DNA of 64,000 nucleotides. It comes from a virus (taxonomy: Duplodnaviria > Heunggongvirae > Uroviricota > Caudoviricetes > Crassvirales). The stretch is taken from the IMG/VR virus record IMGVR_UViG_3300037280_000040, positions 20,379 to 84,378 of that record. One strand, given 5' to 3'. The first letter of the stretch is position 1. Each line of letters begins with the position of its first letter. The translations under genes were made by a program, and so were the position numbers. Of the stretch, positions 29,225 to 55,686 are shown one piece after another. The notes beneath the pieces were generated by a model. It worked only from the letters and a program-made list of their open reading frames with translations. It made no database searches and was not told where the DNA came from.

Positions 29225-29246
29225 AGTTTTTTATTTAAAAATAAGA

Positions 29247-29770: not shown

Positions 29771-30112
29771 TTATTTTAGCATAGCTTCTAACTCTTCATC
29801 AGAAATTTGAGTAATTTTCAACTCTTTTCTTCTTGCTATTTCAACAAGAATTTTCTGATTATTTTCTTTAATAGCAGCAGCATCTCTAAGAGTTTTAGCT
29901 GCATCCTTTTTAGTAATGTAAATATCTTTTAAGATATTAAAAGATAATTCAATTAACTTATCAACTTTACTTTCAGATTCTTCTAAAAAGTCAAGTTCAT
30001 CATCATCACTAGCTTTAAGAGATTTCTTAATAGCTTTAATAGTGATTTTTAAAGTTGTTACAGAGATTACAATTGTGTACTGATGATTTAGGGTCTCTAA
30101 AAATAGGGTCAT
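29771..30112 (-). CDS. Hypothetical protein
   Basis: ORF overlapping the upstream ORF by 77 nt in a different frame. Confidence 0.3.
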   Translation of the reverse strand: MTLFLETLNHQYTIVISVTTLKITIKAIKKSLKASDDDELDFLEESESKVDKLIELSFNILKDIYITKKDAAKTLRDAAAIKENNQKILVEIARRKELKITQISDEELEAMLK

Positions 30113-33461: not shown

Positions 33462-34144
33462 TAGAAAGTTACATCTAAAGGATTAGCACCACTACTTGAT
33501 TTAGAGATAGAAGAAGAAATGAAATTAATCATTTTTCTTATCTCAGCACCAGTATTACCTACTTTAGCCAAATGTTGAATACCCATTAACTTTTGAGCTC
33601 TCTCAAAAGAAGAATCATCTCCTACTCCAAATAAGATTGAAGTAAAAGAAAAGGCACTTGCTTCATTTTTAGCAATATCATCAAGAGTAGTTTTAACAGC
33701 ATCAGCTGCACCTCTCTGTGATGAATTATCTTCACCATCAGTAATTACAAATACTAATGTTTTAACATTAATACCAGTATTTTCAAGGTTCTCTCTGTAC
33801 TCAATAGCATTTTTAATACCTTGAGCCACTGCATCATATAAAGCTGTACCATGACCTGATGGAGTAAATTGAATAGTTGGTACTCCAATAATAGGTTGGA
33901 ATCCACTTCTTACTTTAACTTTATCATGGAATTCTACAATAGAAACAAATAATCTATCATGAATATGACTTTGTTGCATAGTTTGAATAAAATCATTGAA
34001 GGCATTATTCAAGTCACTAGAATATGGGTATATTGATGGAGAAATATCCACAATGAATACAGCATTAATAGTTTCTTCTACTTGAATTTGCTCTGGGTCA
34101 AAATTATTAAAATCCAGAGATAAGTCTAAATCATTAAAATCCAT
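33461..34144 (-). CDS. von Willebrand factor A (vWA) domain protein with a MIDAS motif
   Basis: The MIDAS is FIVDISPSI (DxSxS), then TALYDAV, then VFVITDGEDN. Confidence 0.6.
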   Translation of the reverse strand: MDFNDLDLSLDFNNFDPEQIQVEETINAVFIVDISPSIYPYSSDLNNAFNDFIQTMQQSHIHDRLFVSIVEFHDKVKVRSGFQPIIGVPTIQFTPSGHGTALYDAVAQGIKNAIEYRENLENTGINVKTLVFVITDGEDNSSQRGAADAVKTTLDDIAKNEASAFSFTSILFGVGDDSSFERAQKLMGIQHLAKVGNTGAEIRKMINFISSSISKSSSGANPLDVTF

Positions 34145-34149
34145 GATAG

Positions 34150-34938
34150 TTACAGTTTAATATTGGTTGATATTTCAAATTTAATTCCCATAGCTTGAGC
34201 ATCTGCATAAATACTATCAGCCATATGTTCAAATCCTGTTACAGGACTCATACAGTCAGTTAAGATTATAAATTTCTTAGCTAACTCAGGAAATTGCATG
34301 GCTTGTTTAAGAGTATTAGCCACACAATGAGATTGTGCTTCTCCTGCAAAGTAAATAACATCAAATGTTTCCAGCTTTTGTAACAAAGCTTGATTCAATT
34401 GAGTCTCAGGATGTCCTGCTACTGGAATATTTGCTCTGAATGCACCAAAGTGTTCAGTTAAGGGATAAGTTCCTTTTGCTACTACTTGATAGAAAGATTT
34501 TGTTTCTCTAGCCCAAGCTGTAACAGCATCCATAATAGGCTCAACAAAAGAAGCTCCTTTAGTTCCAATAACACAATGCTCAGCCCAAATACAATGAGGG
34601 AATTCTCCTTGTTTCTCAAGTTCCTCAATATACTTAGTAGCTTCATTAGGCACAAATCTTGGACTCCATTTACCATCTAACACATCTTGATATGTTATGA
34701 TTGTAAAAATAGGTGGGAAATTACCATCTTTATCTGTCCAAAATCCTGGGTGAGCAATATCTAATACTTGGTGACTGTCCATAGTCATACCAATGTAATT
34801 AATGCTGTTTTTATTTTTAGTAATAAATTCAGCTAGTCTCAACATGTCTTTATCTGCATTATCTACAAATAATGATCCTTTTGGGTCACAAAAGTCAAAT
34901 TGAGCATCTATAATTAAAAGAGCTATTTTTTTATACAT
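34150..34938 (-). CDS. Isochorismatase-family cysteine hydrolase, nicotinamidase (PncA)-like
   Basis: IALLIIDAQFDFCDPKGSLFV matches PncA ALLLVDLQNDFC..G.L.V. A candidate catalytic Cys lies in FAGEAQSHCV. Confidence 0.55.
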   Translation of the reverse strand: MYKKIALLIIDAQFDFCDPKGSLFVDNADKDMLRLAEFITKNKNSINYIGMTMDSHQVLDIAHPGFWTDKDGNFPPIFTIITYQDVLDGKWSPRFVPNEATKYIEELEKQGEFPHCIWAEHCVIGTKGASFVEPIMDAVTAWARETKSFYQVVAKGTYPLTEHFGAFRANIPVAGHPETQLNQALLQKLETFDVIYFAGEAQSHCVANTLKQAMQFPELAKKFIILTDCMSPVTGFEHMADSIYADAQAMGIKFEISTNIKL

Positions 34939-34962
34939 TGTGTAAATATTTAATAAGTGAAT

Positions 34963-35295
34963 TTAAATCTTTTTAGTGAGAAATGTAATAATTTTACCTG
35001 CTTTATATACAATATTCTTATCATCAGTATAATACTGAATTATTAGATTTATAATAAAAGCTAATGACATAATAATATTAATAAAAGGAATAAAGAATGT
35101 TATTCCCATTACTATATATACAATTAATGGATATTTTACTCTTTCAGTAGCTACTGAATCTTCAATTAATTCTAATTTATTAGAGTAAAATCCAGTATTT
35201 TTTCTAAAACAATCTTCAGTATATCTATAAGATTGTTTTAGCATATTGTATAATAGAATATACAATATTAAAGCTATGATATATCCTATCCACAT
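34963..35295 (-). CDS. Small membrane protein
   Basis: Two hydrophobic segments. Confidence 0.35.
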   Translation of the reverse strand: MWIGYIIALILYILLYNMLKQSYRYTEDCFRKNTGFYSNKLELIEDSVATERVKYPLIVYIVMGITFFIPFINIIMSLAFIINLIIQYYTDDKNIVYKAGKIITFLTKKI

Positions 35296-35299
35296 AGTA

Positions 35300-36154
35300 C
35301 TACTTAATTAATAGTCCACCATTAACTCCATAAGTAGTAGGATATTTACCATCCCATACTTTTAATCTTTGTAATTCTACAAGAGCAGGAGTTAAAGATT
35401 TTGATACTTTCTGATTATAATATTCTTCTGCATCTGCTTCAATTTTTCTTGCATCTGCACGTCCTTTTGCTTCAGCTATAGCTATATTGGCATGAGCTGT
35501 TGCAAGAGCAACTTTATTCTCTTCCTTTTGAGCATCTTGAGTCATTGCAACTTTAGCATCTAAAGCATCTTTTATAGATTTAGGTATTCTTACTGAACCA
35601 ATTAGATATATATTATCAATTAATATACCATCATTCTTAAGATTAGCTGTTACAACCTTTTTAACTGAATCAATTAATAATCCTTTACCAGCACCATACA
35701 CTGATTCAACAGGCATATTACCACTAATTCTATTCAATGCATCTCTTACTGTATTCCTTAATACTATACTTCTTATTTCTTCAACTTGTTTATGATAGGT
35801 AGTATACATATGAGGTAATTTATCAAAATCAAAATGCATAGCTATTCCTAAATCAACTGCACATTCCATTCCTTCTTTTGTTTGAAATGTAAATTCTTCA
35901 TTGTCTTTAGAACCTTCAGTTGAACTGGCAGTAAATGTATAATTAACCTTAAAGGTAGGGAAATCATAGTAGTTTTGACCCCATGATTCAAAATAATTAC
36001 CTGGTCCAACTGCTTTAGGTTGTACTCCTTTATTATCACCATACTTTTCAAGAATAACTGAAGCTGAGCCTATCTCAGTTCTGTGCATACAACTTGTGAG
36101 AGTCATAGTCAAAGCTACCATAAGTAGCATAGAAAAAATCTTTAATCCTTTCAT
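35300..36154 (-). CDS. Lipoprotein with an SPFH/Band-7 (HflK/C-like) domain
   Basis: Signal plus lipobox MLLMVALTMTLTSCM. The C-terminus has an Ala/Glu-rich coiled coil, ALATAHANIAIAEAKGRADARKIEADAEE, typical of SPFH proteins. Confidence 0.5.
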   Translation of the reverse strand: MKGLKIFSMLLMVALTMTLTSCMHRTEIGSASVILEKYGDNKGVQPKAVGPGNYFESWGQNYYDFPTFKVNYTFTASSTEGSKDNEEFTFQTKEGMECAVDLGIAMHFDFDKLPHMYTTYHKQVEEIRSIVLRNTVRDALNRISGNMPVESVYGAGKGLLIDSVKKVVTANLKNDGILIDNIYLIGSVRIPKSIKDALDAKVAMTQDAQKEENKVALATAHANIAIAEAKGRADARKIEADAEEYYNQKVSKSLTPALVELQRLKVWDGKYPTTYGVNGGLLIK

Positions 36155-38585: not shown

Positions 38586-38625
38586 AATGTTCTTAAGTAC
38601 TAAGATTAATAATTTATTTAATTGT

Positions 38626-38698
38626 GATTCAGAAGGGATTCAAACCCTTGACCCCTACCTTAGAAGGGTAGTGCTCTATTCAGCTGAGCTACTGAACC
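38626..38698 (-). tRNA. tRNA-Arg (anticodon UCU)
   Basis: Manual fold: acceptor GGUUCAG/CUGAAUC, D stem GCUC/GAGC, anticodon stem CUACC/GGUAG with loop CUUCUAA, T arm AAGGG-UUUGAAU-CCCUU. Confidence 0.7.
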
Positions 38699-39888: not shown

Positions 39889-40218
39889 CTATTGTTTTGG
39901 GTTTAATAAATACCCTAGAGTATTTTCGTCTGCTACATGAGTATTAATTATATTATTTACCTCAGAGTATATCCAATTCTCAAAATGAGATTTCTTATAT
40001 TCTGATATTTTCTTTAATATACTTAATATATCATACAATTCTTTCTCAGCTTGTTTGAGGTCAAAGGATTTACTACTAGTCATATCAAATCCTGCATTCT
40101 GTAATAATACACTAATAGTAGCATAATTATCAGATTTCCAGTGATTTGAAATGTCTTGTACAATAGCTTGAAAAGCTCTTATTTCCTTTTTGATTAAAAT
40201 TAAAGTATTTACTTTCAT
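39889..40218 (-). CDS. Hypothetical protein
   Basis: ORF. Confidence 0.35.
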   Translation of the reverse strand: MKVNTLILIKKEIRAFQAIVQDISNHWKSDNYATISVLLQNAGFDMTSSKSFDLKQAEKELYDILSILKKISEYKKSHFENWIYSEVNNIINTHVADENTLGYLLNPKQ

Positions 40219-41437
40219 CTTGATTAATAGTTTTTTAATGGTTTAATTCTCAACTATTAATATAGATTAGTTGAGATAGTTTAATAATAATGTTTCATTT
40301 TTCTTGAATTATAGTGAATAATTAGTAAAAAAGAATTAGACAGGTAAATAAAAAATAAACTATAACTAGTCCAATAGAGTGTGTTAATACATCTTTATTT
40401 AGACTTAGTTATAGAATTATACTATCAAATAACTGATGTTTATAATTTTTAATTGGTTTGTTCTTGCTTATCAGGTTCATAATAAACCTTAGCAGGATGA
40501 GTTAATTGGATATCTAATACTTTAGTAAATAAATAGAAAAATCCTATTATAACTACTAAAGCAATGATTAATCCAGTTACTTTTACATGGATAACTTTGA
40601 TTGTTTTCATTAGGACTATTGATTATTGATTGTTGATTAAAAATAAAATAACTCTCTTACTTGACCTGACTATCCTAAGTTATCAAAGATTAACTAGTAT
40701 TCCTAATAGGGCTTTCTGTTGTCTTTCAGAGAGTTAAAAAATAATCTTAAACTATGGGTTGTATGCATTCTTTATCTCGTAGGCTTTACTTGCATAATAT
40801 CAACTCTGACGTTTCTCAGCTTTTAGAGTCCATAATTTAAGATTAAGGGATTGTAATATAAATAAACAAGGCTCTTTACAATCTCAACAATAGTTAAGTT
40901 CTGCAAGTCTTATACAATTATTCATTGCCTTTAAATAGGATTAAACTTATTATATTCAGGGCTGTAATGTGACACCTGCTTGTTTAAAATTTACTACACT
41001 TATTACCACTATTATTTTCAAATGGCTGTATAGTTGATTTATATCTAGAGAGTATTCTAGTTATATTTCATTGGCTATTTAATATAATAAAGAGCTATTT
41101 AAACCCAAACAATACTCGTTTGTAGCTGAATACTCTCTAATATATTTTTTACTATTACTTAATCACTACCATCTAATCCTGGGTAGTCATAATCTTGTGA
41201 ACAATCATCTAAATCACCATCAAGGTCATCTAAATCTCTTTTTCTATAAGCCATAATGGTTAAATTAAGATATTATTGTATCACAATTTTGTTGATTGGC
41301 AAATTTAATTGCTCTAGCTAATGACCTACTAGCACCTTTATTTTTATTAGGTGCTAGTACATCTTCAAATTTATCAGTTTTATTGTTTTTACGTTTGGAC
41401 TGTTTAACTGTACTTACTCTATGAATGGTCATAATAT

Positions 41438-41749
41438 TTACTTTATTAGTTCATTAACATTATAATCAGTAAAGAAGTGTTTCATGATTGTACCTCTACC
41501 TGAGTAGGCAAAGATACTATCATTACTTTCTACAATAATAGTGTAAGACCTTGTATCTATATTACATATTTGGTCTATTATTCTCACAGAATCTTTAAAT
41601 GAATTAAGATTCTCAATAAATTGAGTATCACTAATTAGTTCTAACTCAGGACTTGTGTTAATACTAGTATCTCTTTTGTAATTCTCAGGAGTACATGAAG
41701 TTATTACTATACTTAGTATAATAATAATAAATAAGATAGTTCTTTTCAT
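41438..41749 (-). CDS. Small lipoprotein
   Basis: Signal plus lipobox ILSIVITSCTP. Confidence 0.4.
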   Translation of the reverse strand: MKRTILFIIIILSIVITSCTPENYKRDTSINTSPELELISDTQFIENLNSFKDSVRIIDQICNIDTRSYTIIVESNDSIFAYSGRGTIMKHFFTDYNVNELIK

Positions 41750-42151
41750 TGTGTTTGTATGTGTAATTGTTGATTAATTAAAGAATTTAACTTCTCCAGT
41801 AGGATATGCAATGCATATTCTATTGCTATTAATACGTGTTTTCATTGTGTTTAATGTGTTTATTAATGTATTATTGATTATTGTATGTTAAGTTATAACA
41901 GTAAATACTGTTAAGTAATAATAAATGTATGTATTTGTTCTATATGTTGCTATCAGGCAATAAATAGTGGGTTGTTTATAGACATCAGATTATCAACACA
42001 TTAGCTACATAAATCTAAAGTAATACTGTAGGTATGACCAATGTTAGAGATTTATTATTAAGGGTAATGTATAACTTTAACAATGTGAGTTCTATCAATG
42101 TAACAATGTGAAATGTATTAATGTATCAATGATTTAATGTTACTCTTAACA

Positions 42152-42182
42152 ATAAAAAAAAGAACAGGAGATTGCTCTCCTG
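42152..42182 (-). terminator. Intrinsic terminator downstream of gene 42202-42507
   Basis: GC-rich hairpin caggaga-ttgc-tctcctg. On the minus strand it is followed by UCUUUUUUUU. Confidence 0.6.
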
Positions 42183-42201
42183 CTCTTAGTTTAGAATTTG
42201 C

Positions 42202-42507
42202 TTAGAATTCTGCCAATACAGCAGCATTGGTGTTTTCACCTAATTGGTGTAACATAAAGAATACACCACTTGGATTCCTTTCAGTTGGGTCACCTGTAAC
42301 TTCAGATACAACTGGTTTGTCCATTGCAGCTAATGTACCAACTTTTTTGATACTGACTGAACCAACTACTTGGTTAAGGTCATTTAGCATACTTAAAGAA
42401 CCTGCATTAAGTTCTTTCACTTTGATAACTTTTGTTCCAATAGAAGCTTTGAAGTCTTCTACACTCATAGTCTTATTAAAGACTAGAGGATTTGCATGTT
42501 CTGTCAT
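42202..42507 (-). CDS. Hypothetical protein (101 aa). It is the first gene of the minus-strand block and has its own terminator.
   Basis: ORF adjacent to the divergent control region and followed by a strong terminator. Confidence 0.45.
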   Translation of the reverse strand: MTEHANPLVFNKTMSVEDFKASIGTKVIKVKELNAGSLSMLNDLNQVVGSVSIKKVGTLAAMDKPVVSEVTGDPTERNPSGVFFMLHQLGENTNAAVLAEF

Positions 42508-42866
42508 AATGAATGTTGTTTAAAGAATGTAAATAATAAATGTTGATTAAATGAAATTTGCCAAATTTGAATGTCCCAGAGGGGGATATACCCAAGTGGC
42601 TAAGAGGTGGGGAGAGTCTGGATAGTTTATATATCACTTGTATAAAAATTTATAATTTTCAAAATTTTAGAGTATACATCACTTGCATAAACTTTTTTTA
42701 TTTCAAAAAAAAAATTAGAATTTTTAAATTTTGAATATTCAGACTAGTTAGTATAATAGGTACATAGAAAGAAGAAGTAAAAAAGGAGTGTACTCAAAGT
42801 CTTGAAATATAGATAGATATATTTATTAAAACTTATTAACTTTTATTGTGTTGTGTATGTCAATTA

Positions 42867-42885
42867 TTTTACTTATCTTTGTTGC
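42867..42885 (+). promoter_or_regulatory. Bacteroidetes-type promoter -7 box (TAtcTTTG at 42874-42881) inside the conserved TTTTACTTATCTTTGT motif
   Basis: The same extended motif recurs before six further plus-strand transcription units. Confidence 0.5.
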
Positions 42886-43586
42886 ATCTGATTAGAGTAT
42901 TACTTTCTAATATCATCCAATCTTATATAAATAAGAAGAAATGTAAGTATTGGATTAGAAGTTGGGTTGTAAGTATACAAATATAGTATATTGAGATGTC
43001 CCCAATACAGATAAAAATGACTTATATATAAGTAAATTTCAGACACCCAAGTAATTGAGAAAAGGTAAAGGTAAAGTCTGTTGAGGGATAAAAGTAGAAA
43101 TACTTTAAGACGTGGTTTATGAAGTTATAAGTTTATAAGGACTCTCAGCAATGAGAAGTTTTTTAGTCATTAACAATTTGGCTAGGACTTCTTATATCAA
43201 TAATTAAATAAATAGAAATATTAAAAACAAATAAGGAATAGAACTTAATAGGGGATTGGGGATTGTTGTATGGCAAAGAAAACTCCATTTAAAGCCTTAT
43301 TAAAGTTTATAAATTTGTAAATAAATAAATATTAATAGTATGAAATTAAAAGTAATGAACTTTAAGATTAAACTAGATATGTTTATGGTTAAATATAATA
43401 ATAATATTATTACAAGTATTATTGCTATGTTGCCATTACTATATCTATTATTTTTACTGTAGGAGAAGGAGATAAATACATAAGAATCAAGGTCTAGGAA
43501 GATAGAAAAAATTAAATATAGTTTATTTTTATCTTCTTAATCAAGTTATATGCTTAGAAATTTTATAAAAGATTTGGTAATCTCAA

Positions 43587-43608
43587 TTATTTTACATATC
43601 TTTGTATA
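43587..43608 (+). promoter_or_regulatory. Promoter motif TTTTACATATCTTTGT, with the -7 box at 43597-43604
   Basis: It shares 22 nt of context, caattattttacNtatctttgt, with the copy at 42861. Confidence 0.5.
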
Positions 43609-43794
43609 GACTTTAAGAGATGTCTATATAATTATTAATTTTTAAACTCATATCCTACTATGAAAACAACTAAGAAATCACCTAAAAAGGGTGGTGGCAA
43701 ATGCTAAAGATTTAGTAATTAAGGGGATAAGTAGTTATTCCCTTTTTTATTATTAATTTATAAAGTTTTAACTATATTTATTTGGTATATTAAG

Positions 43795-43816
43795 TAATTA
43801 TACTTATCTTTGTGTA
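43795..43816 (+). promoter_or_regulatory. Promoter motif TACTTATCTTTGTG, with the -7 box at 43805-43812, upstream of gene 43836
   Basis: Motif match. Confidence 0.5.
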
Positions 43817-44123: not shown

Positions 44124-44194
44124 AGTTTCCTAGTGTAATGGTAGCACAAGAGTCTTTGGTCCTCTTAGTTAAAGTTCAAATCTTTAGGAGACTA
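44124..44194 (+). tRNA. tRNA-Gln (anticodon UUG)
   Basis: Manual fold: acceptor AGUUUCC/GGAGACU, D stem GUG/CAC, anticodon loop CUUUGGU, T arm UAAAG-UUCAAAU-CUUUA. Confidence 0.55.
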
Positions 44195-44203
44195 CAATAA
44201 TAT

Positions 44204-44275
44204 GCCTTTATAGTGTAATGAATAGCACACGATTCTTCTAAGATTATAGTATAGGTTTGAATCCTATTAGGGGTA
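44204..44275 (+). tRNA. tRNA-like, probably tRNA-Arg (UCU), with a weak anticodon stem
   Basis: Acceptor GCCUUUA/UAGGGGU is wobble-rich. The T arm is AUAGG-UUUGAAU-CCUAU. The anticodon loop is CUUCUAA, but only 4 of 5 stem pairs form. Confidence 0.4.
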
Positions 44276-44290
44276 CAATAATTAATAAAT

Positions 44291-44557
44291 ATGATACAAA
44301 GAGTTCCTGTATTGAGAGAATGTTCTTATAAAGAATATAATGATAACATAGATAAACATCCTGATGAATATCTTAGATTATTTGTAGTTGATAGTAATAC
44401 TGAAAGTACTGAGGATATTACAAAAGAGGTTGATGATAATATTGATGCAATAGGTAATACTGATAAGAATAAGTTTTACAAAGTATTAGGATTAGTTAGT
44501 TCTCAAGAGTTAGAAAAAGATATACAACAAACACAACAAAGTAGTTTGTTGAATTAA
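44291..44557 (+). CDS. Hypothetical acidic protein
   Basis: ORF. Confidence 0.35.
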   Translation: MIQRVPVLRECSYKEYNDNIDKHPDEYLRLFVVDSNTESTEDITKEVDDNIDAIGNTDKNKFYKVLGLVSSQELEKDIQQTQQSSLLN

Positions 44558-44718
44558 ATCATAAATGTTTTTAATAAAGTTGATTTAGCTATACTTAGTC
44601 TGTGAAGATAGAGATAGCACAAAAATATAGATATAGTTCAGTTGCTAGAATGCTTGGTTTGGGACCAAGAGGTCAAGAGTTGGAGTCTCTTTATCTATAC
44701 AATTTATTTTAGAATTAA

Positions 44719-44932
44719 AATGGAAGAAGAAAAGAAAACATTAGAACCTTATCAACTAAGAGTTATTGATGAGTTTAAAGATATTGATTTTAAAGTAAGA
44801 AAGATAGAGAAATTTATATTAACTGATGTATATAAAAATTTATCTAAATCAGAACAAAGTATGATAGACTTACAGGTTATGTATATGACTGGTTATTATA
44901 AAGTTTTAATGGAAAGAATAAATAGATTTTAA
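44719..44932 (+). CDS. Hypothetical small protein. The start was moved to the internal MEEEKKT.
   Basis: ORF. The upstream part of the listed ORF is unlikely to be coding. Confidence 0.35.
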
Positions 44933-44935
44933 TAA

Positions 44936-45009
44936 GGGGTCTTAGCTCAATTGGCTAGAGCGATTGCTTTGCAAGCAATAGGTAGTGGGTTCAATCCCCA
45001 CAGATTCCA
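44936..45009 (+). tRNA. tRNA-Ala (anticodon UGC)
   Basis: Acceptor GGGGUCU/AGAUUCC with G3:U70. D stem GCUC/GAGC. Anticodon stem AUUGC/GCAAU with loop UUUGCAA. T arm GUGGG-UUCAAUC-CCCAC. Confidence 0.75.
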
Positions 45010-45014
45010 CATAT

Positions 45015-45088
45015 GTTCTAATAGCTCAATTGGTTAGAGCTTTTGACTGTTAATCAAAGGGTTGTAGGTTCAAGTCCTACTTAGAACG
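45015..45088 (+). tRNA. tRNA-Asn (anticodon GUU)
   Basis: Acceptor GUUCUAA/UUAGAAC. Anticodon stem UUUGA/UCAAA with loop CUGUUAA. T arm GUAGG-UUCAAGU-CCUAC. Confidence 0.75.
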
Positions 45089-45111
45089 CAGTATTAATTT
45101 AATTAAAAACA

Positions 45112-45414
45112 ATGGCACAAATTGAAGTAATGTTAGAGATTATAGATGATGTAATTCCTTTATATCCTGATTTAGTATCAAAAGATTATAAAGAAACTAT
45201 CATATATGATTATAAAAATTTATTAGATACTAAAGAATCTCTATATAAATATAGAGAAATAGTAAGAGAATTAGAAGTAGCTTTAAAAGAAAGAGAATAT
45301 AAATTTAATAAACAATCTCAATTTTTTAATATTGTTTATAAGACTGAAATTAAACAAGGAGTTGATAAACCTGAATATGCTGATACTATGCATGTAAAGG
45401 GAAAAGTATATTAA
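45112..45414 (+). CDS. Hypothetical protein
   Basis: ORF. Confidence 0.4.
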   Translation: MAQIEVMLEIIDDVIPLYPDLVSKDYKETIIYDYKNLLDTKESLYKYREIVRELEVALKEREYKFNKQSQFFNIVYKTEIKQGVDKPEYADTMHVKGKVY

Positions 45415-45415
45415 T

Positions 45416-45643
45416 ATGACTTGGGAAGAAGCTTACTTAGAGATGGAGAAAGGTAATATTATTACCACTCCTAATAGTCCTAATTATTGTTTACTATATG
45501 CTCCTAATCATATATTAGTATTTTGTGAACCTGATAGATTATATCATATTAGTAGTAATAAAAGAATTAAAGAAGTTACTGATTATATAGTTGATAATAC
45601 TAAGAGAGATATTATTAATAATTTAGTAATAAAACTAAAATAG
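45416..45643 (+). CDS. Hypothetical small protein
   Basis: ORF 2 nt after the previous stop. Confidence 0.35.
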   Translation: MTWEEAYLEMEKGNIITTPNSPNYCLLYAPNHILVFCEPDRLYHISSNKRIKEVTDYIVDNTKRDIINNLVIKLK

Positions 45644-45677
45644 TTTATTTTTATCTTCCTACTCAATTTTAAAGCGT

Positions 45678-45938
45678 ATGAATAGATACTTTATAGTTAA
45701 TCCAAATCTTTATATATCTAAAGATAAATACATAGTAAGACTAACTGAATACAATATTGATACTCATATCTTTAAAGGAACTAAGATTAGTTGGATTACA
45801 AATGATGAGGATGGTAAAATAGAAGATATTAGAATAGAAGATATTGAATTGGATGATAATAAATTATCAATATTTAAAGAAATAAATAAAAGAATTTTTT
45901 ATAAGATATTATTAGTACTATTAAAGAATTCTTATTAA
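45678..45938 (+). CDS. Hypothetical small protein
   Basis: ORF. Confidence 0.35.
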   Translation: MNRYFIVNPNLYISKDKYIVRLTEYNIDTHIFKGTKISWITNDEDGKIEDIRIEDIELDDNKLSIFKEINKRIFYKILLVLLKNSY

Positions 45939-45956
45939 CCTTAAAAACTTAATAAA

Positions 45957-46397
45957 ATGGACAATTTTGATTTAGATTTAAGTCTAAGACCTAAGGGTGG
46001 TAGTGGTAATACTAGTGGTACTAGTACTTTTAAAGATTTTATATGTAAACTTGAAAGTTATAAAACTAAATTTAAGAATTTACATTGGGGAGCTATGAAT
46101 GATACTTTACATTTAAGAGTAGACCAATTCTTAGATGAGTTAACTGACTTCCAAGATGAATTATCTGAGACAGGGCAAGGTATTATAGGATTCCAATTTG
46201 GACCTAATGATATAGTTACTACTCACTTAAATTATACTGACCCAATAGTAGCTTTAACTACTCTTAAAGATAAAACATTAGCATTTCATAAAAGTATTAA
46301 TTCTAATCCTGAATTAATTGGTTTAGTAAATTCTGTAGAAGGATTTATGACTATAGTAGGAAAATTCTTATATTTATTTAGAATAGCTGCTAAGTAA
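45957..46397 (+). CDS. Hypothetical protein (146 aa)
   Basis: ORF. Confidence 0.4.
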   Translation: MDNFDLDLSLRPKGGSGNTSGTSTFKDFICKLESYKTKFKNLHWGAMNDTLHLRVDQFLDELTDFQDELSETGQGIIGFQFGPNDIVTTHLNYTDPIVALTTLKDKTLAFHKSINSNPELIGLVNSVEGFMTIVGKFLYLFRIAAK

Positions 46398-46406
46398 TTA
46401 GTCTAA

Positions 46407-46479
46407 GGACCAGTAGCTCAGTTGGTAGAGCACCTGACTCATAATCAGTAAGTCCCAAGTTCAATCCTTGGATGGTCCA
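46407..46479 (+). tRNA. tRNA with a CAU anticodon, Met or Ile2-lysidine type
   Basis: Acceptor GGACCAG/AUGGUCC with a G7·A66 mismatch. D stem GCUC/GAGC. Anticodon loop CUCAUAA. T arm CCAAG-UUCAAUC-CUUGG. Confidence 0.55.
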
Positions 46480-46480
46480 C

Positions 46481-46553
46481 TGTGTGGAAAGCTCTTATGG
46501 TGAGAGTGCCAAATTGTGGATTTGGAGGGAGGGTTCGAGTCCCTACTACACCC
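46481..46553 (+). tRNA. tRNA-like, probably tRNA-His (GUG). The acceptor/D-stem junction is irregular.
   Basis: Clean anticodon arm CCAAA-UUGUGGA-UUUGG. T loop UUCGAGU. Discriminator C, as in tRNA-His. Three A residues separate the acceptor and D stems. Confidence 0.4.
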
Positions 46554-46558
46554 TTAAT

Positions 46559-46631
46559 GGAAATATGGCAGACATGATGTATGCACTAGTTTGAAGCACT
46601 AGCTAAGGGAGTTTGAGTCTCTCTGTTTCCA
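46559..46631 (+). tRNA. tRNA-Phe (anticodon GAA)
   Basis: Acceptor GGAAAUA/UGUUUCC. Anticodon stem CUAGU/ACUAG with loop UUGAAGC. T arm GGGAG-UUUGAGU-CUCUC. Confidence 0.55.
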
Positions 46632-46692
46632 CAATATTAGTTAATACTTAAAACTTTAACAATAATAATTAGGTCATGTAGTTTATTTTACT

Positions 46693-46700
46693 TACCTTTG
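46693..46700 (+). promoter_or_regulatory. Promoter -7 box TAccTTTG inside TTTTACTTACCTTTGT, upstream of gene 46724
   Basis: Motif family match. Confidence 0.45.
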
Positions 46701-46723
46701 TATCAACAAATAAAAAATAAAGT

Positions 46724-47092
46724 ATGAGTGTAGTTTTATTAAATAGTTTGAATGCTGATAGAGATTTTATTTTAAATCTTAATGGTATTTTTAATAATGG
46801 AAAAATTATAGATAAAAAATTATTTTTTCATTCTGAAATTTATATATATTCTAATTCTACAGTAGAAGGAGTAGTAATGTATGTACCTACTAATGAGGTT
46901 TTTCTTAGAATTAAAGTAACTTATCCTACCCAAAATATTGCTAATAAGAGTGCATGGATTATGACTAGTAACTTAGAAGAAGAATTATTAAGACAAATAT
47001 TATTTGCTAAAGAAACTAATAATACTATAACTGATACTAAAGGTAATATTATTAAAACATTTGCTGATTATAAAAAAGAAATAATGCCTTGA
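46724..47092 (+). CDS. Hypothetical protein
   Basis: ORF behind the promoter motif. Confidence 0.4.
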   Translation: MSVVLLNSLNADRDFILNLNGIFNNGKIIDKKLFFHSEIYIYSNSTVEGVVMYVPTNEVFLRIKVTYPTQNIANKSAWIMTSNLEEELLRQILFAKETNNTITDTKGNIIKTFADYKKEIMP

Positions 47093-47171
47093 TGGTGGAA
47101 TTGGTAGACACGCAGGACTTAAAATCCTGTGAGCAGTAATGCTCGTATGGGTTCAAGTCCCATTCAAGGTA
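47086..47171 (+). tRNA. tRNA-Leu (anticodon UAA), type II with a long variable arm
   Basis: Acceptor GCCUUGA/UCAAGGU. Anticodon stem CAGGA/UCCUG with loop CUUAAAA. Variable-arm hairpin GAGC-AGUAAU-GCUC. T arm AUGGG-UUCAAGU-CCCAU. Confidence 0.75.
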
Positions 47172-47254
47172 CAATTATTTAGTTTCTAACAAAGTGGATG
47201 GAAGTTAGAATTAAGTGGAGACATGTAATATTCCAACTAAATAATTTTTAAAAT

Positions 47255-47326
47255 GCCAAATAAACTTTGATGATGAAGCCCACTCTTGTAAAGTGGTTTA
47301 ACTAGGTTTGAGTCCTAGATTTGGCT
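47255..47326 (+). tRNA. tRNA-Thr (anticodon UGU) with an atypical D arm
   Basis: Perfect acceptor GCCAAAU/AUUUGGC. Anticodon stem CCACU/AGUGG with loop CUUGUAA. T arm CUAGG-UUUGAGU-CCUAG. The D stem pairs poorly. Confidence 0.5.
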
Positions 47327-47337
47327 CAAAAAAAAAT

Positions 47338-47411
47338 AGCGGGTTAGAGCAGTCAGGTAGCTCAACAGACTCATAATCTGTAGGTCACTGGTTCAAATCC
47401 AGTACCCGCCA
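47338..47411 (+). tRNA. Second CAU-anticodon tRNA, with an A1·C72 mismatch
   Basis: Acceptor AGCGGGU/ACCCGCC. D stem GAGC/GCUC. Anticodon stem ACAGA/UCUGU with loop CUCAUAA. T arm ACUGG-UUCAAAU-CCAGU. Confidence 0.6.
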
Positions 47412-47434
47412 CTAAATACTTTAAATATATAAAT

Positions 47435-50515: not shown

Positions 50516-50814
50516 TGGCTAATATAAAATATACATTAAGAGTAGAGGATTTAGCAATAGCTTTAAATAATCTTACTGGAAGTAAAGGACTTTATGTTAT
50601 TAAAAGAAACATAGAAAAGAATGAACTCTTTGGAGCTATTAAAATCTTTACTATTGAACTATTATACAAAGAAATAGGTAAAGAAATAGTATCAGTATTA
50701 AGAAGTATTAGAAGTAATAAATGTACTACTGATGTAGAAGAATTAAATAACTGGAATGAAGTAAGTATTGAGTTTACAAAAGAAGTATTAAACTATATAA
50801 AATGGAAGAAATAA
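50515..50814 (+). CDS. Hypothetical protein
   Basis: ORF with ATGA overlap. Confidence 0.35.
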   Translation: MANIKYTLRVEDLAIALNNLTGSKGLYVIKRNIEKNELFGAIKIFTIELLYKEIGKEIVSVLRSIRSNKCTTDVEELNNWNEVSIEFTKEVLNYIKWKK

Positions 50815-53171
50815 TATTAAATAAGTATCAAACTCCTATTACAGAAGAGTATTTAGAATCTCTAAATCCTGAAGTAAAAGATGATTTATTAGATGCTATT
50901 ACTAATATTGAATTTATAAAAAGATTAATAAGTCCTGATAGAAAATATGCTAAAGATTTAGATAGAAGAGCAGTAAGTATAGTTACTGATATTACTACTA
51001 ATACAAGAGTAATTGAGAATAGAATTATAGTAGATATAGTTAATCCTCATATACTTGAAGATATGGAATATTTTAGACCAACAGGTAATCATTTTAGACA
51101 ACATGGTACACTTACTAACTTAAGACCTAATGCTAATCCTAGTAGTGAATTTGGTAAATGGTTAAGACAAGAAAAGTTAAGAATTTGGTATGGAATGGTT
51201 AGACCTAGTGATGGTGAATGGATTACAGGAGATATGTATTTTTATTTAAACTATACTCCAATTATTCAATCTAAAATTAGAGAAGGTACTAAACAAGCTG
51301 ATAGAGTTATTGACTTCCCTGAGGTATGGGAAGGTATTTACTTATGGTTTCATTATCAAGACCAAGCTAGAAATGGAGGTATATATAATAATTGGGAAGG
51401 AGCAGAACATGCTATACAGATAGCTAGACGTGGAGCTAGTAAGAGTTATAGTGCTGCTGCAAGACTTGCCAAGCTATTTATATGTGGAGAGAATGAGTTA
51501 GCATGTAAGTCAGTAAAAGGAGCTGTTACAGCTTATCAGAAAGAGTATTTAACTAAAGATGGTATTCTTAATAAGTTTATTGATATTATAGATTTTAATG
51601 CTGAACATACTCAATTTCCTTCTCAAAGATTAAAGGATTCTTTGGCAGATATGTCATGGATGATGGGATATAAAGATGCTGATACTAATACTAATAAGGG
51701 TACAGGTAATGAAGTTTTAGGTATATCAGCAAAAGATAATACTGATAAATCCAGGGGTAAAAGGTCTAATATTTTTATCTATGAAGAATTTGGAGCTTTC
51801 CCTAAATTTATTGATACATGGGGAGTTAATAAATCAAATGTTCAGGAAGATGATATTGTATTTGGTCAAGCTGTAGGATTTGGTACAGGAGGTTCTGAAG
51901 GTTCAGATTTTAGTGGAGCTTTAGAAATGATTTATAATCCTATTGGTTATGGTGTATATGCTTTACCTAATGTGTATGATAAAAATAGTCAAGGTAAACA
52001 AAAGACTGTATTCTTTTTTGGTTCTTATCTAAATAGAAAAGGGTGTTATAATAAGGATGGAGTATCTGATGTTATATTAGCTTTAACTAGAGAGTTTGAA
52101 GCTAGGTTTAAAGTTAAATATAATAGTAGTGACTCAATGGCTTTAACTAGAAAAAAAGCAGAGCAAGCTATTACTATTCAAGAAGCTGTAATGAAAAGAG
52201 AGGGAACTATTTATCCAGTAGCTGACCTTACAGATAGATTAAATGAATTAGATTTTAATCCTAAAAGTTATGATGATATCTTAGTAGGACTCATCTCTTT
52301 AGATAAGGATGCTGTAGTTAGATTTAAACCTAGTAGTGAAGTTAAACCTATTAGAGAATTCCCACATAAAGATAATAAATTAGAAGGATGTATTGAGATA
52401 CATGCATTACCAGTAATGGATTCTAATAATAAAGTTTATAGAGGTAGATATATTGCAGGTATTGACCCTTATGATGATGATGCTTCAGGTACTTTATCTT
52501 TAGGTTCTTTATATATTTTAGATTTATATACTGATAAAATTGTATTTGAATATACAGGTAGACCTATGTTTGCTAATGATTTTTATGAGATTTGTAGAAG
52601 AGCTTTATTAATGTATAATGCTGAGTGTAACTATGAAAATAATAAGAAAGGTTTATTTACTTATTTTTCTACTCATAATTGTACTTACTTATTATCAGAT
52701 AATCTTGAGTTTTTAAAAGATAAAGCTTCTACTAAGGTTGAAGCAAACTATGGAAATAAAGCTAAAGGTACTATATCATCTGCTCCTATTAAAGCTTATG
52801 GTAGGAGAGCAATTAAAGAATGGTTATTAAAACCTTATACTGTTACTAAAGTTATTGATAAAGAAGAAGTAGATGTAAAAGTACCTTTTCTTACTCAACT
52901 TAACTCAAGAGCACTTATCAAGGAATTAATACTATGGAATCCTGATGGTAACTTTGATAGACATGATGCTTTAGCTATGCTTATGTTAATAAGAGAAGAT
53001 AAGTTAAGGTTATTTGGTACTAATACTCCTTCAGAATCTTTAGGTAAAGAGAGAGGAAGTGAATTAGCAGATGACCCATTTTTTACAAATAACTATAAAC
53101 CTTATAAAGAAGATACTTTTACTAAGAATTACAAGGCATTAGGACTACATTTAGATAATAATCAAGAGTAA
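50802..53171 (+). CDS. Terminase large subunit
   Basis: Walker A-like IARRGASKSYS. The C-terminal nuclease-domain motif is YIAGIDPYDDDASG. It precedes the portal gene. Confidence 0.55.
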   Translation: MEEIILNKYQTPITEEYLESLNPEVKDDLLDAITNIEFIKRLISPDRKYAKDLDRRAVSIVTDITTNTRVIENRIIVDIVNPHILEDMEYFRPTGNHFRQHGTLTNLRPNANPSSEFGKWLRQEKLRIWYGMVRPSDGEWITGDMYFYLNYTPIIQSKIREGTKQADRVIDFPEVWEGIYLWFHYQDQARNGGIYNNWEGAEHAIQIARRGASKSYSAAARLAKLFICGENELACKSVKGAVTAYQKEYLTKDGILNKFIDIIDFNAEHTQFPSQRLKDSLADMSWMMGYKDADTNTNKGTGNEVLGISAKDNTDKSRGKRSNIFIYEEFGAFPKFIDTWGVNKSNVQEDDIVFGQAVGFGTGGSEGSDFSGALEMIYNPIGYGVYALPNVYDKNSQGKQKTVFFFGSYLNRKGCYNKDGVSDVILALTREFEARFKVKYNSSDSMALTRKKAEQAITIQEAVMKREGTIYPVADLTDRLNELDFNPKSYDDILVGLISLDKDAVVRFKPSSEVKPIREFPHKDNKLEGCIEIHALPVMDSNNKVYRGRYIAGIDPYDDDASGTLSLGSLYILDLYTDKIVFEYTGRPMFANDFYEICRRALLMYNAECNYENNKKGLFTYFSTHNCTYLLSDNLEFLKDKASTKVEANYGNKAKGTISSAPIKAYGRRAIKEWLLKPYTVTKVIDKEEVDVKVPFLTQLNSRALIKELILWNPDGNFDRHDALAMLMLIREDKLRLFGTNTPSESLGKERGSELADDPFFTNNYKPYKEDTFTKNYKALGLHLDNNQE

Positions 53172-53271: not shown

Positions 53272-55686
53272 ATGTTTCAAAATAATTTACCTCCACAACA
53301 AATATCCTTCTTAAGAAAAAATAAAGAATGGAGAAAGAAACATTTAGACTGGGCAGACCACAGAACATTTGCTACTGATAGTTTAGTAAGAAACTCTGTT
53401 ATACATAAAAGAATCAATTATGATTTACTTAATGGTAAACTTAATGTAGATGATATGAATCAAGTATTAAATCCTGACTCTATACAAGCAGGATTTATAC
53501 CTGAACATATTACTCATTATCCTATTATGAATGCTAAATTAAATGTTCTTAGAGGTGAAGAATCTAAAAGAAGATTTGATTTCAGAATGATAGTAACCAA
53601 TCCAAATGCTATATCTGAGATAGAAGATAAAAAGAAAGAATTATTATTTGCTGATGTAAAAAAGTTAGTATCTAAGAATGGCTTATCAGATGACCAGTTT
53701 AATGGTGAACTAGATAAAATAAATGACTATTATAGTTATGAGTATCAAGATATTAGAGAGATTAGAGCTAATGCTTTAATACAACATTATACTAAAGAAT
53801 TAGAAATTCCTACTACATTTAACGCAGGTTTTGTAGACGCTATGAGTGTTGGTGAAGAAATTTATCAATCTGATATAGTATCAGGAGAACCAACCTTTCA
53901 AAGAATTAATCCATTAAAAATAAGAATATTTAGGTCAGGATTCTCTAACAGAATAGAAGATGCTGATATTATTGTGCTTGAAGATTTTTGGAGTCCTGGT
54001 AGAATTATTGATAATTATTATGATGCATTATCTCCAGCAGATATGGATTATATTGAACATTTACCTCAAGCTGCTTATGCAGACCAAATGGGTAATATAG
54101 ATGAAAGAAGAGCCTTTATTAATGTTAATGATTTAAGTGGTACTACAGAAGAAGGTGTAGTAATTGATAGTTATGCATTATTTACAGGACCATCAGCTAC
54201 TAATAATTACTATGATAATAGTGGTAATATTAAAGTACTTAGAGTATATTGGAAGTCTAAAAGAAAAATTAAAAAAGTAAAATTCTATGACCCTGAAACA
54301 GGTGAACCTGATTTTAAATTTTATCCTGAAACTTATACAATAGATAAAAATAAAGGAGAAGAAGAAAGTATTTATTGGATTAATGAAGCTTGGGAAGGTA
54401 CTAAAATAGGACAACATATTTATTTGAATATGAGACCTAGATTAGTTCAGTATAATAGATTAAGTAATCCATCAAGATGTCACTTTGGAATAGTAGGAAC
54501 ATTATATAATTTAAATGATTCTAGACCATTCTCAATGGTTGATATGATGAAACCTTATAATTATATGTATGATGCTACTCATGATAGATTAAATAAAGCA
54601 ATTGCTTCTAACTGGGGTAAAATACTTGAGTTAGATTTAGCATTAGTTCCTAAAGGATGGGATGTTGAGAAATGGTTATACTATGCTAAAATTAATCATA
54701 TAGCTATTAAAGATAGTTTTAAAGAGGGTAATATTGGAATAGCTACAGGTAAGTTAGCAGGGTCAATGAATAATGCTTCTAAGGGAGTAATTGATGCTGA
54801 AACAGGTTCTTATATTCAACAACATATAAATCTACTTGAGTTTATTAAAATGGAAATGGCTGAAGTAGCAGGTATTTCTAAACAAAGAGAGGGACAAATA
54901 AGTAATAGAGAAACAGTTGGAGGAGTTGAAAGGTCTAATTTACAATCATCACACATAACTGAATGGTTATTCTTACAACATGATAATACTAAAAAAAGAA
55001 GTTTAGAGTGTTTTATAGAAACAGCTAAAGTAGCTATGAAAGGTAGAAGTAAGAAATTTCAATATATCTTACCTGATGCTTCTTATAGATTAATGGATAT
55101 TGATGGTGATGAATTTGCTGAATGTGATTATGGTTGTGTTATAGATAATTCTAATGGTACAGCTGAATTAGCTTCTAAGTTAGATACATTAGCTCAAGCA
55201 GCATTACAGAATCAAACACTTGACTTCTCTACTATTATGAAGATATATACTACTACTTCATTAGCTGAGACTCAAAGAATTGTAGAAAAGAATGAACAAG
55301 CTATGCAAGAAAATAAACAAAAATCTGAGCAAGCTCAACAACAACATGAACAATCTATTGAGCAAATGAAGCAACAAAATATTATTAATAGTAATCAATT
55401 ATTAGATTCAATGAATCAAAGAGATAATGAAACTAAAATAACAGTTGCTACTATAACTGCTAATGCTAAGAGTCAACAACAACAAACCCAAGAGGAAGAT
55501 ACTCAAGAATATGACCCAGTTGCACAAGCTAAATTGTTTGAAGATATGAAACAATTTAGTTTAGAACATGGATTAAAAATTGATGATTTACAATTTAAGA
55601 AGAAAGTTCATGCTGATAATATGGATATTAAAAAGCAAGACATTGCTATTAAGAGACAGAATGCTAATAAGAAAACTACTAAATAA
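53272..55686 (+). CDS. Portal protein (804 aa) with a Gln-rich C-terminal region
   Basis: It follows the large terminase and matches crAss-like portal size. The C-terminus reads QENKQKSEQAQQQHEQSIEQMKQQN. Confidence 0.5.
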   Translation: MFQNNLPPQQISFLRKNKEWRKKHLDWADHRTFATDSLVRNSVIHKRINYDLLNGKLNVDDMNQVLNPDSIQAGFIPEHITHYPIMNAKLNVLRGEESKRRFDFRMIVTNPNAISEIEDKKKELLFADVKKLVSKNGLSDDQFNGELDKINDYYSYEYQDIREIRANALIQHYTKELEIPTTFNAGFVDAMSVGEEIYQSDIVSGEPTFQRINPLKIRIFRSGFSNRIEDADIIVLEDFWSPGRIIDNYYDALSPADMDYIEHLPQAAYADQMGNIDERRAFINVNDLSGTTEEGVVIDSYALFTGPSATNNYYDNSGNIKVLRVYWKSKRKIKKVKFYDPETGEPDFKFYPETYTIDKNKGEEESIYWINEAWEGTKIGQHIYLNMRPRLVQYNRLSNPSRCHFGIVGTLYNLNDSRPFSMVDMMKPYNYMYDATHDRLNKAIASNWGKILELDLALVPKGWDVEKWLYYAKINHIAIKDSFKEGNIGIATGKLAGSMNNASKGVIDAETGSYIQQHINLLEFIKMEMAEVAGISKQREGQISNRETVGGVERSNLQSSHITEWLFLQHDNTKKRSLECFIETAKVAMKGRSKKFQYILPDASYRLMDIDGDEFAECDYGCVIDNSNGTAELASKLDTLAQAALQNQTLDFSTIMKIYTTTSLAETQRIVEKNEQAMQENKQKSEQAQQQHEQSIEQMKQQNIINSNQLLDSMNQRDNETKITVATITANAKSQQQQTQEEDTQEYDPVAQAKLFEDMKQFSLEHGLKIDDLQFKKKVHADNMDIKKQDIAIKRQNANKKTTK

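Follow-up and report, generated by a model that had tools for sequence, protein, structure and literature searches.

In this study, we analyzed an array of transfer RNA (tRNA) genes in a 64,000-nucleotide stretch of a crAss-like gut phage (positions 20,379 to 84,378 of the virus record IMGVR_UViG_3300037280_000040), the whole of which is referred to here as the window. Loci were accepted as tRNA genes where ARAGORN drew a cloverleaf and the covariance score against the Rfam model RF00005 reached at least its gathering score of 29 bits. ARAGORN, run over the whole window, called ten plus-strand tRNAs at 44124-47412, a minus-strand tRNA-Arg(UCU) at 38624-38698 and one transfer-messenger RNA (tmRNA), and each of these eleven tRNA loci also exceeded the RF00005 threshold, with scores from 33 bits (His) to 74 bits (Asn). 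Together with a Thr-like gene that both programs passed over, the ten plus-strand genes and the minus-strand Arg gene are a genuine array of twelve tRNA genes, interspersed with small open reading frames (ORFs), one of which is YunG-like:

38625-38698, minus strand (the early/replication strand): tRNA-Arg(UCU), second copy; ARAGORN and Rfam, 64.4 bits; elbow pair A19:U56
44124-44194, plus strand: tRNA-Gln(UUG); ARAGORN and Rfam, 54.7 bits; A1:U72, and a U31.C39 mismatch at the base of the anticodon stem
44204-44275, plus strand: tRNA-Arg(UCU); ARAGORN and Rfam, 49.3 bits; weak anticodon stem; elbow pair A19:U56
44291-44557, plus strand: small ORF of 88 amino acids between tRNA genes, no family match
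44627-44699, plus strand: tRNA-Pro(UGG); ARAGORN and Rfam, 62.9 bits; elbow pair C19:G56
44720-44932, plus strand: small ORF of 70 amino acids related to crAss001_48 (Pfam PF21825, E = 1.6e-12)
44936-45009, plus strand: tRNA-Ala(UGC), canonical; ARAGORN and Rfam, 66.8 bits; G3.U70
45015-45088, plus strand: tRNA-Asn(GUU), canonical; ARAGORN and Rfam, 74.1 bits
45957-46397, plus strand: Dps-like ORF of 146 amino acids within the array (PHROG 858)
46407-46479, plus strand: tRNA(CAU), probably of Ile2 type; ARAGORN and Rfam, 63.0 bits
46482-46552, plus strand: tRNA-His(GUG), irregular; ARAGORN and Rfam, 33.0 bits
46559-46631, plus strand: tRNA-Phe(GAA); ARAGORN and Rfam, 45.5 bits; three-pair D stem and a large D loop without GG; elbow pair A19:U56
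47086-47171, plus strand: tRNA-Leu(UAA), class II with a long variable arm, canonical; ARAGORN and Rfam, 59.4 bits
47255-47326, plus strand: tRNA-Thr(UGU)-like; below the thresholds of the standard predictors, detected with a custom model
47338-47411, plus strand: tRNA(CAU), predicted initiator type; ARAGORN and Rfam, 65.4 bits

A preliminary description of the locus, made from the sequence alone, had listed ten plus-strand tRNAs and the minus-strand Arg gene. Nine of those ten and the Arg(UCU) gene were called by both programs and every anticodon given for the called genes was correct, but the Thr gene was left uncalled and the Pro(UGG) gene at 44627 had been overlooked. Three of the listed tRNAs had been flagged as departing from canonical geometry, and of these the predictors accepted Arg 44204 and His 46482 and, at their default settings, rejected Thr 47255, which therefore does not pass the refutation test laid down in the preliminary description, although other evidence given below rescues it. 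The weak anticodon stem ascribed to Arg 44204 is seen in the ARAGORN and Rfam alignments as a C27.A43 mismatch and two G.U pairs; this gene is 78% identical to the array Arg gene of related phages. Besides the Pro gene, the preliminary description lacked two elements that are developed here, namely that the array is a feature of the phage family and that a compensated change of the 19:56 pair lies behind most of the irregular D loops. The flanks of the genes are also alike. All 12 are followed by C and then A (mostly CAA) and never by CCA. Most also have AAAT or AAT in front of them, and these flanks may represent a shared processing context.

The Thr-like gene at 47255 is the only member of the array that depends on evidence other than the standard predictors, whose rejection of it is accounted for by its D loop lacking GG and its T loop UUUGAGU. 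ARAGORN called it only at an 85% threshold, alongside five probable false positives in coding sequence. A covariance model constructed from the Thr genes of ten relatives (model R1, for which the best non-tRNA matches were ≤16 bits) matched it over its full length with 39.2 bits (E = 2e-7), a score ranking above those of four accepted tRNAs. Its minimum-energy fold is a complete cloverleaf (-18.5 kcal/mol, z -2.2) with seven acceptor, five anticodon-stem and five T-stem pairs, a three- or four-pair D stem and a compensated A19:U56 elbow. It occupies the slot of the relatives' Thr(UGU) gene, between Leu(UAA) and the terminal CAU tRNA, and resembles that gene in length, G1:C72, C2:G71, the U73 discriminator and the CUUGUAA anticodon loop, with flanks (aaaat|...|caa) that match those of the other tRNA genes. 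On the strength of the R1 score, synteny and the cloverleaf fold, we assign the Thr-like gene as a real tRNA homologue. Two other sub-threshold ARAGORN calls, at 7731 and 36735 on the minus strand, were discarded; both lie within coding sequence and have no support from model R1.

Comparison with related phages placed the array in a wider setting. The window is AT-rich (26-30% guanine plus cytosine (GC), ~27% overall) and its coding strand switches near 41-43 kb, with genes for replication functions on the minus strand and the terminase (50802-53171), portal (53272-55686) and major capsid protein (62393-63883) genes on the plus strand, 3' of the array. The array is at the head of the plus-strand structural module, ~3.4 kb 5' of the terminase gene. 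The terminase, portal and major capsid ORFs match PHROG profiles over nearly their full length in the standard code, and the major capsid protein shares 65-70% identity with its counterparts in cr111_1, cr108_1 and the Bacteroides PhiCrAssBcn phages, cr111_1 (NC_055880) being classified in the Steigviridae. Judged from these profile matches and capsid identities, the window phage is a Steigviridae-like crAss-like phage, a new addition to the PhiCrAss001 family group with a higher AT content.

When the Dps-like ORF at 45957-46397 was used as a probe for relatives, it matched 26 viral contigs of ~100 kb, in all of which a homologue of ~40% identity sits within a tRNA array, making this ORF a conserved landmark of such arrays. 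ARAGORN identified up to 23 tRNAs around these homologues in a fixed order: Gln, Arg, Glu, Asp, Ser, Pro, Ala, Val, Asn, Trp, Ile(GAU), CAU, His, Ile(UAU), Lys, Lys, Tyr, Phe, Leu(UAG), the Dps ORF, Leu(UAA), Thr(UGU), Gly and CAU. The order in the window (Gln, Arg, Pro, Ala, Asn, CAU, His, Phe, Leu(UAA), Thr-like, CAU) is that of the relatives with genes missing and small ORFs between. The RefSeq genome of cr111_1 has 26 annotated tRNAs in the same order, with a 'putative DpsA' in the array and, upstream of it, Gln and Arg genes that lie on the other strand; its minus-strand Arg(UCU) gene is at a place equivalent to that of Arg 38625 in the window. PhiCrAss001 has 25 tRNAs and a GC content of 34.7%, compared with 42.5% in its host (PMC6235969). 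The window array therefore belongs with those of the Steigviridae by its tRNA order, its embedded Dps-like ORF and its position upstream of the terminase on the structural-gene strand and, on this comparison of gene order, we consider it to be a pruned version of a conserved array of 20-26 genes, with small ORFs at places where other tRNAs have been lost. It is an array of an ordinary kind, already annotated in relatives, in which several tRNAs are unusual but compensated.

A search of viral and metagenome collections with the Dps-like ORF for relatives at intermediate distance returned only near-identical contigs (L001 and L030) or contigs at ~40% identity, other than a single Dps locus at 62% identity (L031) that has no tRNAs. 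Contig L001 is 98.7% identical to the window and differs by one change each in the His and Thr-like genes, too few for a test of selection. A search for relatives by terminase gave contig L057, whose terminase is 67% identical and which has the same 27% GC; it shares only Arg, Leu, Pro and the initiator with the window.

Two of the array's tRNAs have a CAU anticodon, and they differ from one another. The tRNA at 47338 is assigned as initiator-type from its sequence features, and in this respect the preliminary description, which had noted an initiator-like A1.C72 along with the absence of the three G-C pairs of the anticodon stem, was accurate on both counts. Its acceptor stem has the unpaired A1.C72 followed by G2:C71 and C3:G70, an arrangement like that of bacterial formylmethionine tRNA (tRNA-fMet) except that the bases are not the canonical C1/A72. 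Its D stem (G10 A11 G12 C13 / G22 C23 U24 C25) contains A11:U24 and G12:C23, which are complete discriminators of tRNA-fMet (Silva et al. 2006, PMC1635315), and its T loop is the UUCAAAU of bacterial tRNA-fMet. In the anticodon stem, for which the fMet criterion is three G-C pairs at 29-31:39-41 (relaxed consensus R29 G30 G31 / Y39 C40 Y41), it has A29:U41, G30:C40 and A31:U39 (au/GC/au), which preserves three purine:pyrimidine pairs with G30:C40 as the sole G-C pair, the first and third having become A-U. The G30:C40 pair is the essential one in the Escherichia coli initiator and is sufficient in suitable contexts, and natural au/GC/gu and au/GC/GC initiator variants are known; au/GC/au is unlisted in that source (PMC5389676). 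Because 47338 keeps G30:C40, the lack of three G-C pairs is no argument against an initiator role. Overall, 55 of 74 positions are identical to E. coli tRNA-fMet. The terminal slot of the array is occupied by an initiator-type tRNA in the relatives also, where the 1:72 pair is weak or unpaired (C.A mostly, U.U in L057 and A-U in L059). In several PhiCrAss001-like contigs (L003 2438-2525, L017 4016-4100 and L023 4341-4429) this terminal initiator-type CAU tRNA, with C1.A72, is 85-89 nucleotides long and has a hairpin in its variable region; a long variable arm is unusual in a Met or fMet tRNA.

The second CAU tRNA, at 46407, is probably a lysidine-dependent decoder of AUA (tRNA-Ile2), a role that the preliminary description had proposed for one of the pair and that is supported in this case by A3:U70, C4:G69 and C5:G68. 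In E. coli, the latter two pairs are determinants for TilS. The acceptor stem reads G1 G2 A3 C4 C5 A6 G7 / A66 U67 G68 G69 U70 C71 C72 and agrees with the criterion we used for Ile2, in which the 3:70 pair is other than C3:G70 (G3 or A3, with C70 or T70), excluding Met and fMet, and C4:G69 and C5:G68 are present; A3 and T70 are negative discriminators against Met and fMet, and the two C:G pairs are frequent in tRNA-Ile(CAT) (PMC1635315). Other features shared with tRNA-Ile2 are the CAU anticodon, A37, A38, A73 and U12:A23. Points of difference are the mismatches G7.A66 and C27.U43, both of which had been noted previously and are borne out by the Rfam alignment, and the pair U29:A41, where the isoleucyl-tRNA synthetase of E. 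coli prefers C29:G41.

An alternative that we consider possible, although we would not favor it, is that 46407 is an ordinary elongator tRNA-Met. ARAGORN labels it tRNA-Met, as the database annotation does its relative in the Suoliviridae phage cr7_1, and it matches E. coli elongator tRNA-Met at 57 of 73 positions as against 53 of 73 for E. coli tRNA-Ile2. In addition, the relatives have a CAU tRNA in the same slot before His together with a separate Ile-UAU tRNA, and Met and Ile2 tRNAs are hard to tell apart by single positions (Silva et al., PMC1635315). Against that alternative, A3:U70 is a complete negative discriminator against Met and fMet and the C4:G69 and C5:G68 pairs are typical of Ile2 (PMC1635315). 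Moreover, the CAU tRNA that precedes His in the relatives is unrelated to 46407 in sequence. The closest match to 46407 is the CAU tRNA of cr7_1 (81% identical), which also has A3:U70, followed by the Ile-UAU tRNA of cr111_1 (73%). The window calls, unlike those of the relatives, include no Ile(UAU) tRNA or other AUA decoder, and AUA use is very high (40% of Ile codons, 36 per thousand). A blastn comparison of 46407 with E. coli genomes did not discriminate Met from Ile2, as the match was dominated by the shared D arm. Decoders of AUA are known from other phages, an example being the tRNA-Ile of T4. No TilS gene turned up when 40 window ORFs were compared with Pfam. The 'tRNA-Met' annotated at 5001-5075 of cr7_1 (L028, NC_055895) has the same Ile2-like A3:U70 and C4:G69 as 46407.

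The tRNA-His gene is irregular and has the lowest score of those accepted by the predictors. Homology with canonical relatives and the Rfam alignment place G46482 at position 1 and a U at position -1, and U at -1 was found in 12 of 12 relatives inspected, in which the junction with the preceding tRNA is always A73-C-U-G1. The gene thus has C73 but lacks the encoded G-1 opposite it that characterizes bacterial tRNA-His and that bacterial histidyl-tRNA synthetase normally recognizes. The ARAGORN drawing has three As between the acceptor and D stems, in agreement with the irregular junction reported at 46481 in the preliminary description, and a U.C mismatch topping the acceptor stem; the structure amounts to an acceptor helix of six pairs, an extra or unpaired A where the acceptor and D stems meet, and a G.A at the T-stem end. 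This architecture is common to the window and contigs L008, L012, L013 and L014. Between the window and the L008/L012 lineage, four D- and anticodon-stem pairs have changed on both sides with pairing kept at 97.5%, which points to selection on the structure of this tRNA. The Pfam scan of the 40 window ORFs revealed no Thg1-like, CCA-adding or tRNA-repair enzyme.

These irregular genes raise the question of whether the array is decaying, with Thr-like 47255, His 46482 and Arg 44204 as pseudogene leftovers of a larger ancestral array. The relatives have 20-26 tRNAs and the window array 11, with ORFs or spacers in the gaps; the Thr-like gene is below the ARAGORN and Rfam thresholds and the His gene reaches only 33 bits; and the mismatched anticodon stem of Arg 44204 coexists with a better Arg-UCU copy at 38625. 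We nevertheless consider decay of these genes unlikely. The stems, the CUUGUAA loop and the A19:U56 pair of the Thr-like gene are intact and its minimum-energy fold is a cloverleaf, while the odd architecture of the His gene has been kept across diverged phages through four compensatory pair changes. All three genes retain the shared flanking motif, and the near-identical, independent contigs L001 and L030 show either no change or a single loop-base change at these loci, a comparison of low power.

A further property of the array was found in the elbow, where the D and T loops meet. Five of the 12 window tRNAs lack the near-universal G19:C56 elbow pair, and in each the replacement is compensated. 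Both Arg tRNAs, Phe and the Thr-like tRNA have G18 A19 in the D loop and U56 in the T loop, giving A19:U56, and Pro has G18 C19 and G56, giving C19:G56. Arg 38625 has the D loop AGCTGAATA and the T loop TTTGAAT, whereas its L057 orthologue has GG and TTC; Pro 44627 has the D loop AGTTGCTA and the T loop TTGGAGT, whereas its L057 orthologue has AGTTGGTA and TTCGAGT. Among a background of 388 unique phage tRNA sequences, 344 had a clear T arm and only ten of these lacked C56, four of them in the window; no other locus had more than one non-C56 tRNA. All ten keep 19:56 pairing (A:U in five, C:G in two, U:A in one and G.U in two), and the absence of C56 was associated with a D loop lacking GG (Fisher p = 3e-12 on counts that include repeated identical sequences, with the same pattern in the deduplicated set). 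As the Arg and Pro orthologues in L057 are canonical in both GG and C56, the double 19:56 changes arose in the lineage of the window, and as L057 is equally AT-rich, base composition alone does not explain them. The maintenance of 19:56 pairing argues that these are working tRNAs.

The ribosome, RNase P and RNase Z are among the factors that use the G19:C56 face (PMC4810234). It is conceivable, although we consider it very doubtful, that the five independent replacements were selected rather than fixed by drift, giving a subset of the phage tRNAs an elbow face unlike that of host tRNAs and insulating them from a factor that reads the elbow. Were this so, that factor might for example be a host defense that targets tRNAs or a phage-directed depletion of host tRNAs, docking with the ribosome and RNase P would be preserved, and the G-1-less His tRNA and the au/GC/au initiator would be further signs that altered identity rules are tolerated or exploited.

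The codon usage of the window (16,062 codons) provides a basis for considering the function of the array. AGA represents 89% of Arg codons (31 per thousand) and is served by two Arg-UCU genes, UUA 67% of Leu codons (57 per thousand), CAA 85% of Gln codons, AAU 89% of Asn codons, CAU 90% of His codons and UUU 83% of Phe codons, in addition to the frequent AUA codons noted above. With standard wobble the array set would read roughly one third of all codons. The genetic code is the standard one, as stated in the preliminary description. ARAGORN found neither a CUA nor a UCA suppressor anticodon in the whole window, the stops of 62 ORFs are 50 TAA, 7 TAG and 5 TGA, and the ORFs are dense and long in the standard code, the structural ORFs being full length by their PHROG matches. 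A tRNA(CUA), an amber suppressor, is present at L057 4373-4444 and L066 3342-3413, in the two contigs that come nearest by terminase (67% and 53% identical) once near-identical ones are set aside, so that stop-codon recoding occurs in sister lineages and not in the window.

Based on these results, we propose that the array is a functional, reduced one that supplements decoders for AT-rich codons, mainly those rare in less AT-rich hosts, a reading to which we assign a probability of roughly 0.7. It draws on the identity, anticodons and synteny of the genes, on structures conserved through compensatory changes and on codon usage, and from these expression, processing, charging identity and a benefit to the phage would be expected. 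The tRNA genes would be transcribed jointly with the interspersed ORFs, and host RNase P and 3' processing enzymes would excise the tRNAs. The host CCA-adding enzyme would complete their 3' ends, since the genes are followed by C-A and not CCA, and host synthetases would charge them. The Ile2-type tRNA would require host TilS to convert C34 to lysidine before AUA could be read, and the initiator-type tRNA would add initiation capacity. Potentially, the phage tRNAs would then top up decoders for the A/U-ending codons of a 27% GC genome, especially AGA, UUA, AUA and CAA.

Several results weigh against this proposal. The most used codons, AAA (71 per thousand), GAA (54) and GAU (56), are uncovered, although tRNAs for Lys, Glu and Asp are present in the relatives, so that compensation at the codon level is no more than partial. 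Where four codons share a box, U34 is the wobble base of the phage tRNAs whereas the commonest codons end in U (CCU 68%, GCU 67%, ACU 64%), so their reading depends on modification of U34. The Thr-like gene was uncalled by default ARAGORN and absent from the Rfam tRNA matches even at E ≤ 10, the tRNA-His scores only 33 bits and lacks the G-1 normally needed by bacterial histidyl-tRNA synthetase, and the in silico fold of Arg 44204 is not stable (z 0.16).

Codon compensation and escape from defenses are the two hypotheses published for phage tRNA clusters (PMC10264068, PMC12482277). Under the second, the array would keep translation running when host tRNAs are depleted by anticodon nucleases, other tRNA-targeting defenses or phage-induced shut-off, and the unusual elbows and stems would make poor nuclease substrates; this is compatible with codon supplementation. 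Escape of this type has been published for other phages (PMC10264068), the retained tRNA set does not track the most used codons, five of the 12 tRNAs are altered at a surface recognized by many proteins and RNAs (PMC4810234), and the equally AT-rich L057 kept canonical elbows. However, the escape changes that are known affect the anticodon loop, which in the array tRNAs is an ordinary loop of seven nucleotides with U33. In addition, the retained tRNAs decode exactly the classic AT-rich rare codons. We therefore regard depletion escape as improbable and supplementation of decoders as the better account of the array.

The tmRNA gene lies elsewhere in the window, at 28814-29224 on the minus strand, in an ORF-free gap (28811-29771). 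Its score against Rfam RF00023 is 46.2 bits, just below the gathering score of 47, with E = 1.3e-16 in a local scan, and ARAGORN predicts its tag peptide to be GKTIVFVPAAKLALVA*. It has GGGGCUA...UAGCUCCACCA with G3.U70 and an encoded CCA, which the tmRNA alone encodes. A blastn search with the tmRNA among annotated phages gave no match, and a scan of viral contigs for its 3'-end pattern matched only tRNA-Ala genes. For cr7_1, the annotated 'tmRNA' goes back to a permuted-type call by ARAGORN, and its tag peptide differs from that of the window. In RefSeq (NC_055895; L028 7367-7730) it is overlapped by a 'tRNA-Cys' with anticodon ACA, and this annotation, seemingly an uncurated permuted call, may be an artefact. 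The tmRNA gene, the compensated elbow changes in five of the 12 tRNAs and the tRNA-His without an encoded G-1 are the features newly found here.

Other features of the window were noted in passing. The strand-switch region at 40218-43812 (~3.6 kb) has few ORFs of at least 60 amino acids. It includes a tandem repeat of 23 bp at 42078-42131 and, at 43721-43744 just 5' of the array, a strong hairpin that resembles a terminator; this region may be an origin or regulatory region. A scan for sigma-70 promoters found fewer sites than in shuffled sequence, that consensus not being informative for a Bacteroidota-type host. The large subunit of ribonucleotide reductase is divided between two minus-strand ORFs (9805-10668 and 8014-9153) with an unassigned ORF between, and a LAGLIDADG endonuclease ORF is beside them on the same strand (10725-11615; region 8014-11615), suggesting an intron or intein with a homing endonuclease. 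A ThiF-family (E1-like) protein adjoins a protein with a weak JAB-domain match (16098-18411, minus strand), which suggests a ubiquitin-like conjugation pair. A run of signaling-type genes occupies 31076-36154 on the minus strand, next to an endonuclease gene that borders the tmRNA gap:

30494-31075, strand opposite to the signaling run: HNH endonuclease, adjoining the tmRNA gap
31076-32743, minus strand: Ser/Thr protein kinase
32730-33461, minus strand: PP2C phosphatase
33461-34144, minus strand: VWA-domain protein
35300-36154, minus strand: SPFH/Band 7 protein

Our results have several uses. For annotation, the Pro gene and the sub-threshold Thr gene were recovered, and of two genes labeled 'tRNA-Met' one is relabeled as an initiator and the other as a probable Ile2. 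The compensated 19:56 variants of the array also form a natural series that can be compared with canonical orthologues in a sister phage, and other oddities for tRNA biology are the family-wide tRNA-His without an encoded G-1 and an initiator that keeps only G30:C40. If these oddities do affect processing, charging or resistance to defenses, they would bear on why phages carry tRNAs.

Among known systems, the closest counterparts are the Steigviridae arrays of PhiCrAss001 and cr111_1, which likewise follow the strand switch upstream of the terminase, have the same tRNA order with an embedded Dps gene and have an extra Arg-UCU gene on the opposite strand. In contrast to them, the window lacks Glu, Asp, Ser, Val, Trp, Ile-GAU, Ile-UAU, Lys, Tyr, Cys, Leu-UAG and Gly tRNAs and has 27% GC compared with 35% in the Steigviridae relatives. 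Its Dps ORF precedes CAU-His-Phe, whereas in the relatives it follows Leu(UAG), and its CAU tRNA before His has a different, Ile2-like sequence. The initiator of the window combines A1.C72 with an ordinary variable loop, in contrast to the C1.A72 and long variable arm of several relatives, and five elbows in the window are other than G19:C56. Also comparable are phage tRNA clusters in general, such as those of T4, T5, mycobacteriophages and Sf14-like phages, with which the window has in common clustered tRNA genes in a phage of lytic type, a base composition differing from that of the likely host and an enrichment in readers of A/U-ending codons. The window array differs from those clusters in its interleaved small ORFs, its initiator and probable Ile2 tRNAs and its tRNA-His without an encoded G-1.

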